Virus genome (UHGV): UHGV-0262016
Direction: 5' to 3' (one strand)
Origin: a virus
Length of the DNA stretch: 12,937 nt
Shown: positions 2,159 to 12,480 of the stretch, in pieces
Position numbering within the stretch: the first letter of the stretch is position 1
Layout of the letters: the number at the start of each line of letters is the position of its first letter
Made by a program: the position numbers and the translations under genes
Notes under the pieces: generated by a model
What the model was told of the DNA's origin: nothing
The model's input: the letters and a program-made list of their open reading frames with translations, nothing else
Database searches by the model: none

Positions 2159-2362
2159 TTACGGTGCTGGTTTAAGTCCTGCCGGGATTTCGTTATTGTC
2201 CATGTGAATAACTTTATCAACCGGATAACAGTTACCGGGAATTTTCTGTTCTGCTGCGGCAGCCATGCATTCTTTCATTGAACCGTAAATGTCAATAACC
2301 AGGTCAACAGGCTCGCCAGTATTAAGAAAAACAGTCAGAGTGAGGGCAATAGCAGTATTCAT
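2159..2362 (-). CDS. ydfD: Small protein with hydrophobic N-terminus (YdfD-like, putative lysis/membrane protein)
   Basis: ATG at 2362 overlaps the dicB stop (ATGA coupling); SD AAGGA 8 nt upstream. Product MNTAIALTLTVFLNTGEPVDLVIDIYGSMKECMAAAAEQKIPGNCYPVDKVIHMDNNEIPAGLKPAP (67 aa). The track's upstream ATG at 2416 has no usable SD. Symbol by position after dicB. Confidence 0.5.
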   Translation of the reverse strand: MNTAIALTLTVFLNTGEPVDLVIDIYGSMKECMAAAAEQKIPGNCYPVDKVIHMDNNEIPAGLKPAP

Positions 2363-2547
2363 TGCCAGTATCCTTTTTGCATCAGACGTAAACGGGCCAG
2401 CATTGAAACAATGCATATTTGATTTAATAACTCCCGTTCGTGTTTTCTCTTATTAATGGCATCTTCAGTAAATGCAGGGTTACTGATACTGACACCAATT
2501 TCAAAACAACCTTCAGACGTATTAACGTTTGGTAATAATGTTTCCAT
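2359..2547 (-). CDS. dicB: Cell division inhibitor DicB (62 aa)
   Basis: 62-aa ORF METLLPNVNTSEGCFEIGVSISNPAFTEDAINKRKHERELLNQICIVSMLARLRLMQKGYWQ closely matches my recollection of K-12 DicB (MKTLLPNVNTSEGCFEIGV...). SD GAGG 8 nt upstream of ATG at 2547. Lies directly downstream of a DicF-like RNA. Confidence 0.8.
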   Translation of the reverse strand: METLLPNVNTSEGCFEIGVSISNPAFTEDAINKRKHERELLNQICIVSMLARLRLMQKGYWQ

Positions 2548-3954: not shown

Positions 3955-4083
3955 TCAGCCGCTAGATTTTGCCGAGCTGGAAAGCGCCTGTTTAAATTCG
4001 CTGAAGCTGAGAGTTTCTTCGCCTTCGGCAAGGCCTTCGAAGTATTCTTCGTAAGCCTTTTCCATGATTGTGTCGAAATCCAT
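3955..4083 (-). CDS. ydfB: YdfB-like small acidic protein (42 aa)
   Basis: Hand-translated ORF not in the track (below its length cutoff): MDFDTIMEKAYEEYFEGLAEGEETLSFSEFKQALSSSAKSSG, stop TGA at 3957..3955. SD GGTGA 5 nt upstream; ATG lies 1 nt after the upstream gene's stop. Length and order match Qin ydfB as recalled. Preferred over the overlapping track ORF 3879..4088. Confidence 0.5.
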   Translation of the reverse strand: MDFDTIMEKAYEEYFEGLAEGEETLSFSEFKQALSSSAKSSG

Positions 4084-4084
4084 A

Positions 4085-4240
4085 TCACTCACCTGAGTTT
4101 CTTTCCAGCCAGCGACGGGCACCATTTTCGGTTTTAAACGTTTTGCTTTTGGTATACGTCATCGCGGTGAACGTGCCGTCTTGGTTGGGAAACACGCCGT
4201 ACACCAGAGATTCGTTGTTGCCAAGAACGATAGTATCCAT
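4085..4240 (-). CDS. ydfA: YdfA-like small protein (51 aa); an alternative upstream start at 4321 would give 78 aa
   Basis: Internal ATG at 4240 with SD GAGG 5 nt upstream gives MDTIVLGNNESLVYGVFPNQDGTFTAMTYTKSKTFKTENGARRWLERNSGE (51 aa), matching the recalled ydfA length. The upstream ATG at 4321 (SD GAGG 9 nt) cannot be excluded. Confidence 0.55.
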   Translation of the reverse strand: MDTIVLGNNESLVYGVFPNQDGTFTAMTYTKSKTFKTENGARRWLERNSGE

Positions 4241-4421
4241 GCTGACCTCATTTCCCCTTAACGCCGGGGTAGCGGAACAAAAACCTGCTGCATAGTTATT
4301 AAAGTTGAACCCTGCCGTCATGTTCTTACGCCTCGGGCTGGCTACTTAACCCCTGACCACTGCCTGGTAACTCGAAGTATTGCCCTGCGTTCTGTGGGGC
4401 GGGGTGGGTTGGTATGGAAAA

Positions 4422-4464
4422 ACTATAGGTAATGCCTAATTATTTGTCAATAGGCTATGCCTAA
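4422..4464 (-). promoter_or_regulatory. PL-like leftward promoter with overlapping operators (OL1 4425-4439, OL2 4450-4464)
   Basis: On the minus strand: -35 TTGACA (plus 4445-4450), 17-bp spacer, -10 TATAGT (plus 4422-4427). Operators ATAGGT-aat-GCCTAA and ATAGGC-tat-GCCTAA, centres 25 bp apart, match the OR palindromes. Confidence 0.6.
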
Positions 4465-4558
4465 TAATTTAGATGCAACCTAATAAGTGATGGTATGTGG
4501 GAGATGTAGTAGGAGTTAACTAACGGGATCTAGGAGTTTCCCGTCGGACCATATAAGT

Positions 4559-5035
4559 TTAAGTTCCTGTCTTGGTGATGTTCTGGCTTTTCCGTTTTGA
4601 TTCTTGATTTTTCAAATAGTTACCTACCTTCATTTCCATTGCGGCAATGTAGGCGCGAACGTCATGATCAACCCAACTAGGCTCCGTAGCATTTCCAGAT
4701 AAGAGGAAAGCTACAATTGCTCTTTTTTCATCAGAGGCGGCTTGATAAAGGCTGTTTATGTCTAAAAGTTCACTTTTTGTATTTGAAGTGGATGGGGTTG
4801 GTATGGGGTATTCGTTAAGCCCCCAATGCTCTGGACCAACCACATCAGAAAAGAAACGCCATAGTTCTGGAAGTTTATCTTTACTTATCGAACCTTTCTT
4901 AATCCAGTCATGGATTGATGGTGGTTGGACTTTGAAATGACGTGCGATCTCCGCCTTTGATTTGACGGCTCCTGATGCAATTTTTTTGTTAATGGCCTGC
5001 TCTATCGCTCGGCCCAAGTCTTTACCACTAAGCAT
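4559..5035 (-). CDS. racR: Prophage repressor, HTH (XRE/CI-like), 158 aa, RacR-like
   Basis: 158-aa ORF with an HTH-like segment (SKAEIARHFKVQPPSIHDWIKKG); SD GGAG 11 nt upstream. Divergent from a cro-like gene and flanked by operator palindromes. The 158/107/141-aa trio matches the Rac racR-ydaS-ydaT layout as recalled; symbol by synteny and length. Confidence 0.65.
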   Translation of the reverse strand: MLSGKDLGRAIEQAINKKIASGAVKSKAEIARHFKVQPPSIHDWIKKGSISKDKLPELWRFFSDVVGPEHWGLNEYPIPTPSTSNTKSELLDINSLYQAASDEKRAIVAFLLSGNATEPSWVDHDVRAYIAAMEMKVGNYLKNQESKRKSQNITKTGT

Positions 5036-5063
5036 TGCTTAATAGTCTCCTATGCGCATCGCG

Positions 5064-5132
5064 TTAGGCAATCCCTATGTTTAGTGCATTAGGCATAGCC
5101 TATTGACAATTGCGTTAGGCGAAGCCTAATAT
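5064..5132 (+). promoter_or_regulatory. OR/PR region: three operators (OR3 5064-5078, OR2 5089-5103, OR1 5115-5129) and the rightward promoter
   Basis: OR1 TTAGGCgaaGCCTAA is a perfect palindrome; OR2 TTAGGCataGCCTAT; OR3 TTAGGCaatCCCTAT is degenerate. Centres are 25-26 bp apart. -35 TTGACA 5103-5108, 18-bp spacer, -10 TAATAT 5127-5132; OR1 overlaps the spacer and -10. Confidence 0.65.
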
Positions 5133-5159
5133 CATTGTGTGTTTTTTGGAGTTCATTCG

Positions 5160-5483
5160 ATGAAAAAAGAGAACTATTCATTCAAACGGGCTTGTGCTGT
5201 TGTCGGTGGGCAATCAGCAATGGCTAGGCTTTTAGGTGTATCTCCTCCAAGCGTAAATCAATGGATCAAAGGTGTACGTCAGTTGCCTGCTGAGAGATGT
5301 CCTGCGATTGAACGAGCAACAAAAGGTGGTGTCCTGTGTGAAGAACTTCGTCCTGATGTTGATTGGTCATACTTACGACGCCCGTCATGTTATTCGCAGA
5401 ATATGTCGATGAAGCAACCAAATGACGAAAACGATCATACCCGAAGCATCAAGAGGCAAATGATTCATGAAAATCAAACATGA
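5160..5483 (+). CDS. ydaS: Cro/CII-like HTH protein (YdaS-like)
   Basis: ATG at 5160 with SD GGAG 8 nt upstream, about 28 nt after the PR -10. HTH-like GGQSAMARLLGVSPPSVNQWIKG. Divergent from the repressor. Confidence 0.6.
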   Translation: MKKENYSFKRACAVVGGQSAMARLLGVSPPSVNQWIKGVRQLPAERCPAIERATKGGVLCEELRPDVDWSYLRRPSCYSQNMSMKQPNDENDHTRSIKRQMIHENQT

Positions 5484-5892
5484 GCACATCCGCATGGCGA
5501 TGAATGCCTGGGCGCGTCCGGATGGTGAAAAAGTTCCGGTAGCCGAGATAACCAGGGTTTATTTCGAGCTGGGCATGACGTTTCCTGAGCTGTACGACGA
5601 CAGCCATCCGGAAGCCCTGGCCCGCAATACTCAGAAAATTTTCCGCTGGGTAGAGAAAGACACCCCTGATGCTGTTGAAAAAATTCAGGCGTTGTTACCA
5701 GCGATCGAAAAAGCAATGCCGCCTCTGCTGGTGGCCCGAATGCGCAGCCACAGTTCAGCCTTTTTTCGGGAACTGGTGGAGACGCGGGAACGACTGGTGA
5801 GAGACGCTGATGATTTTGTCGCAGTGGCGATCGCTGGTTTCAATCAGATGAATCGTGGTGGCCCGGCGGGAAATGCCGTGGTCGTTCATTAA
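5467..5892 (+). CDS. ydaT: YdaT-like protein (141 aa)
   Basis: ATG at 5467 overlaps the end of the previous gene; SD GAGG 10 nt upstream. Length and position as in Rac ydaT. Symbol by synteny. Confidence 0.55.
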   Translation: MKIKHEHIRMAMNAWARPDGEKVPVAEITRVYFELGMTFPELYDDSHPEALARNTQKIFRWVEKDTPDAVEKIQALLPAIEKAMPPLLVARMRSHSSAFFRELVETRERLVRDADDFVAVAIAGFNQMNRGGPAGNAVVVH

Positions 5893-11087: not shown

Positions 11088-11423
11088 GAAGGAAACAAAA
11101 CAGAAACAACAATTGCCGTTACCTGTTGTTACCATGGCAAGTAAACGCATCTCAGGCGAGCGCATTGCACCGTTCTGACGCAGATAAATTAGCCTGGATA
11201 GATGGTGCTGGCAATAAAAAATAGCGTTTTCTTATCGGTGTCGGTAAGATTGCTGCGGGTGCTTGAGGCTGTCTGCCTCGGGCATGCCACTGTAAGGCAG
11301 GCAGAGAAAAGCCCCAGTTAACATTACGCGTCCGGCAAGACGCTTAACATTAATCTGAGGCTCCCTATGCATGACAACATCAGGTTAGCCTCTTACGTGC
11401 CGAAAGGCAAGGAGAAGCAGGCT

Positions 11424-11579
11424 ATGAAGCAGCAAAAGGCGATGTTAATCGCCCTGATCGTCATCTGTTTAACCGTCATAGTGACGGCACTGGTAACGAG
11501 GAAAGACCTCTGCGAGGTACGAATCCGAACCGGCCAGACGGAGGTCGCTGTCTTCGTAGACTACGAATCTAGAGAGTAA
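11424..11579 (+). CDS. hokD: Hok/Gef-family type I toxin (51 aa), HokD/RelF-like
   Basis: Product MKQQKAMLIALIVICLTVIVTALVTRKDLCEVRIRTGQTEVAVFVDYESRE is a Hok-family signature, nearly identical to HokD/RelF as recalled. SD GGAG 9 nt upstream. An in-frame upstream ATG at 11367 (SD GAGG 6 nt upstream) gives a 70-aa mok-like extended frame. Confidence 0.8.
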   Translation: MKQQKAMLIALIVICLTVIVTALVTRKDLCEVRIRTGQTEVAVFVDYESRE

Positions 11580-11733: not shown

Positions 11734-11796
11734 TATTTTGCATCAAATTTGGTGCATGGCTTTGCCAATAATCGGAAAACAAAAGGACTCATTAGT

Positions 11797-11976
11797 ATGA
11801 GCTGCCCACTCAAAAAACACACGCGGTTGAGTATTCCGCCTCGCGATAAAAGCGTTGTGGCAGTCCCTCGCCCAGCGATTGATGAAAACTGCGCACATCG
11901 TGAACAAGTGAAAAATGCTTTTGATTTCGGTTTTTCTCGTTATGAGAAAGCCATGGAAGAACTTTCAAAAGTGTAA
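11797..11976 (+). CDS. Small ORF upstream of the Doc-family toxin; candidate antitoxin of non-Phd type
   Basis: ATG at 11797 with SD AAGGA 9 nt upstream. Product MSCPLKKHTRLSIPPRDKSVVAVPRPAIDENCAHREQVKNAFDFGFSRYEKAMEELSKV (59 aa). Ends about 20 nt before the toxin start. Role inferred only from its position. Confidence 0.45.
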   Translation: MSCPLKKHTRLSIPPRDKSVVAVPRPAIDENCAHREQVKNAFDFGFSRYEKAMEELSKV

Positions 11977-11994
11977 TGATGGGTATTGTGCTCT

Positions 11995-12480
11995 ATGGCT
12001 GAGATTGTTGAAGGAGTGCATTACCTTACGGTTGATGATCTTGTTGAAATCAATCGTTCCCTAATTGAATTACAGACGCCAGATGAGCCCGTTGGTGTTC
12101 TGAGTCCAGATAACTTAAGTTCTTCTCAGGCCCGTCCCAGCATGGTTCGATGGTATGAACAGACTAATGACATGTTTGTACTGGCATCGGTATTGATTGA
12201 AAGTCTGATTCAGAATCACCCGTTTGCTAATGCGAACAAACGAACAGCTATGATGGCTGGTTACGTCTTCTTGTTGTTGAATGGCTATGAGTTAACAGCA
12301 CCAGGCGATGAAATCGTGGAAATGGCAGAGGGACTGGCCTGCAAAATCTATACTCGAGAAGATCTCGAGAACTGGTTGTGTTATTGGTCTCGCGCGTATG
12401 ACAGCCGGGAATTATGTAAAACAGGCGCAACTATTGTTTTGTATGAAACTATCAAGCTTAAAATAGAACAGCAAAACTAA
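11995..12480 (+). CDS. Doc-family (Fic/Doc fold) toxin, 161 aa
   Basis: Contains the Doc signature H-x-F-x-N-A-N-K-R (HPFANANKRTAMMAGYVFLLLNGYEL); the N-terminal segment (YLTVDDLVEINRSLIE) is also Doc-like. Start taken as ATG 11995; a TTG at 11986 is possible. Confidence 0.75.
   Translation: MAEIVEGVHYLTVDDLVEINRSLIELQTPDEPVGVLSPDNLSSSQARPSMVRWYEQTNDMFVLASVLIESLIQNHPFANANKRTAMMAGYVFLLLNGYELTAPGDEIVEMAEGLACKIYTREDLENWLCYWSRAYDSRELCKTGATIVLYETIKLKIEQQN

Follow-up and report, generated by a model that had tools for sequence, protein, structure and literature searches.

A Rac-type immunity region with putative operators on both sides of racR in a mosaic lambdoid prophage

How is a lambdoid prophage kept silent, and how is it released, when its repressor gene lies directly between two sets of operators and codes for a short protein without an obvious autoprotease domain? 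This question is raised by positions 4422-5132 of the DNA analysed here, a 12,937-nucleotide stretch of the virus genome UHGV-0262016, which is referred to as the window in the following.

A Rac-type immunity module

The original prediction described this region as an immunity region, and the identification of racR, ydaS and ydaT by homology and by their Pfam and PHROG families bears this out (Table 1). The presence of racR together with the adjoining ydaS and ydaT points to the immunity region of a Rac prophage. Further features of Rac-type modules are present: racR is divergent from ydaS-ydaT, operators are located between them, and there is a YdaT-box, which is published as ATGATT-N6-AATCAA over the ydaT start codon (PMC11879457). 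We regard region 4422-5132 as the switch that governs immunity in a mosaic lambdoid prophage of the Rac immunity type, and assign a probability of about 0.85 to this explanation as a whole.

Table 1. Positions of genes, operators and promoters in and around the immunity region, and of S24-fused repressors in related loci.
Feature	Position	Strand	Sequence	Remarks
First ORF of PL operon, DUF1391 (ydaF-like)	4085-4321	-		PF07151, 1.3e-26; PHROG 751
PL (putative)	4450->4422	-	TTGACA (4450->4445), 17-bp spacer, TATAGT (4427->4422)	11/12 consensus matches
OL1 (putative)	4425-4439		ATAGGTAATGCCTAA	2 mismatches; covers PL spacer and first 3 nt of PL -10
OL2 (putative)	4450-4464		ATAGGCTATGCCTAA	1 mismatch; base 4450 (plus strand) is first T of PL -35
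OL3 (candidate)	4469-4483		TTAGATGCAACCTAA	3 mismatches
racR	4559-5035	-		158-aa repressor; 92% identical to protein cluster named RacR
Weak fourth right-hand site	5028-5042		CTAAGCATTGCTTAA	3 mismatches; over racR ATG
OR3	5064-5078		TTAGGCAATCCCTAT	2 mismatches; in racR promoter region
OR2	5089-5103		TTAGGCATAGCCTAT	1 mismatch; last base is first T of PR -35
PR (PydaS)	5103-5132	+	TTGACA, 18-bp spacer, TAATAT	10/12 consensus matches
OR1	5115-5129		TTAGGCGAAGCCTAA	0 mismatches; covers PR spacer and first 3 nt of PR -10
ydaS, Cro-like regulator	5160-5483	+		PF15943, 3.5e-30; P22_Cro, 1e-8; PHROG 35
YdaT-box	5460-5477	+	ATGATTCATGAAAATCAA	across ydaT ATG; fits the published motif
ydaT, CII-like regulator	5467-5892	+		PF06254; PHROG 163 'CII-like transcriptional activator', 4.5e-44
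S24-fused repressors	L096:4001-4708, L097:4001-4708, L099:4001-4681, L011:3001-4101, L013:3001-4089			

More than 1000 E. coli chromosomes match a 1.2-kb stretch around racR over at least 80% of its length, with identities of up to 96.6%, and the matching stretch is annotated there as racR, HTH protein and YdaT-family protein. Complete E. coli genomes contain at most 61% of the window in any one place. Leftward of PL, the window carries the DUF1391 gene, dicB and a DUF1482 gene, and O-like replication genes and a Ren-like gene are located rightward of PR. The Rac prophage of K-12 has the same three regulatory genes in the same order, the same OR sites, the same TTGACA/TAATAT hexamers of the ydaS promoter, the same YdaT-box and the same cassette of OL1, OL2 and PL. 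It differs in its leftward operon, which contains kilR and sieB where the window has dicB and the DUF1482 gene, and in its replication genes; the flanking early genes are thus mosaic. The best match to the whole window, in E. coli A8, has an immunity module of the PaaR2 type where the window has racR.

In the A8 prophage, an HTH repressor, an antitoxin and a RelE/ParE toxin (L100:22328-23238) replace positions 4559-5035 of the window, and the flanking genes are otherwise similar; judged from the alignment, this looks like a swap of immunity modules. The gene for the cell-division inhibitor DicB and the DUF1482 gene (2159-2547, minus strand) belong to the leftward operon downstream of the putative PL; a search of the window with Rfam at the gathering threshold returned no DicF. 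A hok/sok type I toxin-antitoxin locus is located at 11257-11579 (Rfam sok, 109.6 bits; Hok/Gef ORF at 11367-11579), and a Fic/Doc-family ORF (11986-12480) is directly preceded by a small ORF (11749-11976, PHROG 2208), with which it possibly forms a phd/doc-like pair (11749-12480).

Operators and promoters flanking racR

The whole 12.9-kb window was scanned for the 15-bp palindrome TTAGGC-N3-GCCTAA (plus-strand coordinates), and the chance expectation was derived from 1000 first-order Markov shuffles. Five sites with at most two mismatches were observed, compared with a mean of 0.42 in the shuffles; none of the 1000 shuffles contained five sites, and none had more than two sites inside 720 bp. 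All six exact TTAGGC/GCCTAA hexamers of the window fall within 4425-5129, more exactly within 4434-5129. Chance is thus a poor explanation for the tandem palindromes that had been predicted on both sides of the repressor gene. The 25-bp spacing ascribed to them fits three of the five centre-to-centre intervals (OL1-OL2, 25 bp; OR1-OR2, 26 bp; OR2-OR3, 25 bp), but not the remaining two, which measure 19 bp (OL2-OL3) and 36 bp (OR3 to the site over the racR ATG). Three right-hand sites and two, possibly three, left-hand sites had been proposed, and the five sites with up to two mismatches agree with this count except for the third left-hand site, which is weak. In many E. coli-type loci the equivalent of OL3 has two mismatches; conservation is limited to its TTAGGT half and to the E. 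coli lineage. OL3 is probably no more than a half-site.

The right-hand side of the switch is known from work on K-12. Krishnamurthi et al. (2017) noted that the racR-ydaS interval contains three GCCTAA/TTAGGC repeats, used thermal shift, EMSA and ChIP to demonstrate that RacR binds, and found ydaS to be repressed (PMC5700373). Wisniewska et al. (2022) mapped one transcription start for ydaS, at TTGACA/TAATAT, and three for racR, one of which is leaderless (PMC9638921). Using DNase I footprinting, they further showed that the site in the ydaS promoter is occupied first, the position of K-12 OR1 being protected at the lowest RacR concentration, and that the OR3 region lies inside the footprint; the operator was defined as (T/A)TAGGC-N3-GCCTA(T/A), with one copy over the racR ATG (PMC9638921). 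This published operator corresponds to the weak site at 5028-5042, where the leaderless racR transcript has its start codon. Later work by these authors found four inverted repeats and, by size-exclusion chromatography, RacR octamers, which were placed on the four OR sites with no bridge between OL and OR; a two-domain model of RacR was also published, the C-terminal domain of which is unlike that of CI (PMC11014345). [quoted passage not shown] The right operators, the ydaS promoter, RacR binding, the octamers and a C-terminal domain distinct from that of CI are therefore already on record; what is added here is comparative evidence for OL and PL and a series of related repressors with and without an S24 domain.

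Escherichia-type loci have four right-hand sites, at -94, -68, -43 and -7 from the racR ATG, and three are found in other genera, at -67, -42 and -7 (L007-L013 compared). The equivalent of the ATG site is a better match in these genera, with one or two mismatches. The difference between four and three sites looks like the insertion of an operator unit of about 26 bp.

A consensus scan of positions 4000-5600 yielded two promoter-like sites, PR and PL. Both are close to consensus and both are overlapped by operators, in agreement with the original prediction. Their geometry is mirror-imaged: the first T of the -35 hexamer is at the same time the last base of the distal operator, and the last three bases of the proximal operator form the start of the -10 hexamer. 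When aligned, PR and PL contain the same cassette, TTAGGCnnnGCCTAT-TGACA-n5-TTAGGCnnnGCCTAA-TAT, which can be regarded as the signature of a selected operator-promoter unit. The PL cassette is also kept in loci of K-12, Mixta, Proteus, Pectobacterium and Achromobacter. For the K-12 promoter, which is identical in sequence to PR, the ydaS transcription start and mutagenesis of the -10 hexamer have been published (PMC9638921). PL presumably drives the ydaF-like/dicB operon in the leftward direction.

The leader between PL and the first ORF (4322-4415, minus strand, about 95 nt) hardly varies when the window is compared with K-12 and one further strain. At the 5' end it is rich in C and poor in G (ATACCAACCCACCCCGCCCCACAGAAC), and it might act as a Rho-loading or nut-like site. 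A hairpin at 4522-4545, between racR and OL, was considered as a terminator and rejected, since it has no U-run and its z-score of -0.89 makes no convincing case.

The RacR protein and the route of induction

RacR contains a predicted N-terminal HTH domain (residues 1 to about 75). An AlphaFold2 model built on 44 orthologues (mean pLDDT 81) is all helical and lacks strands; it consists of five helices (4-71), a disordered linker (76-87) and three further helices (87-152). A Pfam search with RacR gave no match to Peptidase_S24 (PF00717), and the linker, PIPTPSTSNTKSE, is without an Ala-Gly cleavage site. RacR therefore fits its description as a short repressor of the HTH type that lacks an autoprotease domain, and the closer look at Pfam families and the predicted structure revealed no cleavable S24-type domain. 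PHROGs holds no family for RacR, and a sequence search of the PDB returned only marginal HTH matches with E-values of about 0.5. Foldseek listed the N-terminal domain of lambda cI, HipB, Cro and C proteins for the model, all with E-values above 0.7; against the PDB, neither the full model nor one of the C-terminal domain alone gave a significant hit, the latter matching generic helical bundles. As modelled, the C-terminal domain is a small helical oligomerisation domain and not an S24 protease.

A C-terminal part that is small, all helical and unrelated to S24 makes RecA-driven self-cleavage of RacR very unlikely. The suggestion that induction takes a route other than RecA is further in line with Liu et al. 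(2015), who reported that mitomycin C does not induce excision of Rac, and Lemire et al. (2011) counted RacR among the short repressors that are unlikely to cleave themselves. Which event lowers RacR is answered differently by two explanations. According to the first, there is no dedicated signal, and noise, dilution or host factors such as H-NS, RpoS, OxyR or foreign regulators change the level of RacR. This is a serious possibility, if still short of probable: excision follows any drop in RacR, over generations, H-NS and RpoS affect Rac excision, and OxyR was reported to block expression of ydaT. However, these data come from a defective prophage, and there are intact Rac-type prophages of the same immunity, for which some route of induction would be expected.

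The second explanation, which we regard as rather unlikely, is that RacR is inactivated by an antirepressor as in Gifsy prophages, which would be under LexA or other stress control and encoded elsewhere in the prophage or in another one, so that the switch would still respond to RecA, though indirectly. RacR resembles the Gifsy-type repressors, which have about 150 amino acids and no cleavage domain; it is a named member of this group, whose members are candidates for antirepressor control, and antirepressors were shown to work in trans between prophages (Lemire et al. 2011). In addition, the separate C-terminal domain predicted for RacR might offer a docking surface for such a protein. On the other hand, the window contains neither a LexA box nor a dinI homologue nor a recognisable antirepressor gene or family match, and no LexA-like box with at least 13 of 20 matches was found in the K-12 Rac stretch (L002, 16 kb) or in the full-length Rac-type sequence ON470595. 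The LexA-box-controlled dinI-antirepressor unit that marks the Gifsy type was found neither in the window nor in the Rac-type sequences examined, and the only good LexA box in a search that included two other prophages belongs to a prophage with PaaR2 immunity. The reported failure of mitomycin C to induce Rac excision also speaks against this explanation.

Left operators, looping and S24-fused relatives

In the searchable literature, no description of RacR sites or of a promoter 3' of racR was found, nor were genome-wide data on RacR binding. A comparison of 97 related loci, representing 46 distinct configurations, strongly supports the left operators and PL as conserved elements. In Escherichia, E. 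ruysiae, Mixta, Proteus and a metagenome-assembled genome (MAG), the OL pair is found 95-130 bp beyond the stop codon with a spacing of 25 bp, and across the 46 configurations its half-sites are fixed and the central N3 triplets vary freely. OL1 is kept wherever enough downstream sequence was available, with two exceptions: in Klebsiella sp. (L009) and a Nitrosomonas MAG (L012), no OL pair with up to two mismatches was detected within 3 kb downstream. Both of these loci have right-hand operators. An E. coli-type racR region is also present on a contig of 5.2 kb that is labelled Candidatus Nanosynbacter MAG (L005). Its repressor and operators do not differ from those in the E. coli loci L003 and L004, and the contig is probably a binning contaminant.

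Expression data from K-12 point in the same direction. Upon depletion of RacR, the leftward Rac genes ydaG, ydaF, kilR, xisR and intR are induced 40- to 100-fold overall: xisR and intR increase roughly 100-fold (PMC11014345), and RNA-seq revealed a 40- to 70-fold increase for ydaG, ydaF, kilR and other leftward genes, with a decrease for racR. As leftward genes rise while racR falls, a distinct leftward promoter under RacR repression is favoured over read-through from the racR promoter. Given the conserved cassette and these expression data, a RacR-repressed PL appears to be the best reading, and OL would then be bound by RacR. The left sites might instead be an inert copy of the PR cassette or mainly YdaS sites, with the leftward genes controlled chiefly by Rho termination of read-through from the racR promoter, and this would suit both the Rho/NusG-dependent terminator inside racR, whose protective effect against kil expression has been demonstrated, and the published model, in which kil is expressed by read-through from the racR promoter that is Rho-terminated within racR and PL is not invoked. 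It is nevertheless highly improbable, as both half-sites and both promoter hexamers are kept across genera where spacers and flanks diverge, leftward expression increases as racR transcription declines, contrary to what read-through would give, and tests of the corresponding PL/OL of CP-933P showed it to be regulated.

The PaaR2-YdaS-YdaT system of CP-933P (E. coli O157:H7) resembles the window in its short octameric repressor, in the YdaS and YdaT partners and in having an OL/PL region in addition to OR, which in CP-933P has been tested. A prophage of the PaaR2 immunity type also shares the flanking genes of the window. In contrast to the window, the operators of CP-933P are GTTTAGTAA repeats, a different sequence, and the toxin-antitoxin pair paaA2-parE2, which has no counterpart between racR and OL in the window, lies between its repressor gene and OL.

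With a RacR-repressed PL, the switch would work as follows. RacR dimers would bind the 15-bp operators through the N-terminal HTH domain, each contacting inverted TTAGGC half-sites 3 bp apart. Since the operators overlap the -35 and -10 hexamers, occupancy of the first and second sites on each side would cover both elements and keep RNA polymerase off PR and PL. The output of PR would comprise ydaS-ydaT and the rightward replication genes, and that of PL the ydaF-like gene, dicB and the recombination and excision genes to the left. OR3 and the site over the racR ATG coincide with the racR promoters, including the leaderless one, and would mediate autoregulation. The Cro-like YdaS would compete at the operator region of RacR, and the CII-like YdaT, bound to its box, would raise racR transcription. 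The switch would flip once the level or activity of RacR falls. We infer the binding of RacR at OL, the looping discussed below and the route of induction.

The dimer pairs on OL and OR, 690 bp apart, would be bridged as in lambda, with racR inside the loop; such looping is probable by analogy because RacR forms octamers. The idea that the helical phase between OL and OR is conserved was rejected, as the distances range from 664 to 692 bp in RacR-type loci; this variability neither supports nor excludes looping. In lambda, OL and OR are about 2.3-2.4 kb apart, compared with 0.69 kb in the window. The two systems share a divergent repressor/cro pair, tandem operators over PR and PL, a CII-like activator, a leaderless repressor mRNA and an octamer-forming repressor. 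They differ in the operators, which for RacR are 15 bp long and of another sequence, in the C-terminal domain of the repressor, a three-helix bundle in the RacR model versus an S24 protease, and in the absence of genes between racR and OL. The latter had been predicted: no ORF of at least 40 amino acids lies between racR and OL, and the racR stop codon is 95 bp from OL2. It is less of an oddity than supposed, as relatives of the locus show both layouts, and in P22 and 434 the repressor gene likewise lies directly between OL and OR. The direct arrangement is a layout variant within one family.

The other layout is found with S24-fused relatives, whose first 75 or so residues, including the recognition helix, are 69-86% identical to RacR. 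They provide a picture of the cleavable counterpart of RacR. PF00717 was detected in P0100, P0102, P0119, L011 and L013; P0100, P0102 and P0119 (226-235 amino acids) display the GDSM and Ala-Gly motifs, and two Achromobacter proteins of 362 and 366 amino acids combine a RacR-like N-terminus with S24. S24-type loci have the same TTAGGC-N3-GCCTAA operators at OR and an OL pair at 25-bp spacing, located 0.76-1.4 kb past the stop codon; their OR-OL distance is 1.5-2.6 kb, compared with 664-692 bp for RacR-type loci. Where gene calls were available (L096-L099), the interval from the repressor gene to OL contains called genes, much like rexAB in lambda. Other, unrelated C-terminal tails are present in P0108, P0110, P0112, P0114 and P0117. 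As far as the sequences tell, a single DNA specificity occurs with various C-terminal domains and in either layout.

Tentatively, the RacR DNA-binding domain and its cassette could be seen as a portable module with swappable C-terminal 'input' domains across Enterobacterales and Betaproteobacteria, these being S24 (SOS-inducible), the helical domain of RacR and at least two other short tails. The RacR-type tail would then create an SOS-blind switch that answers to a signal or partner, in which octamers bridge OL and OR across a 0.69-kb loop holding racR, and PL and PR are held shut.

The switch is of practical interest, as E. coli strains with a Rac prophage depend on RacR for viability, and enterotoxin genes can be found on Rac-type prophages. 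If demonstrated, OL, PL and OL-OR looping would revise the picture of an octamer confined to OR and of kil silencing by Rho only. Repressors with one DNA specificity and differing C-terminal domains would, moreover, make it possible to test cleanly which features determine SOS inducibility.
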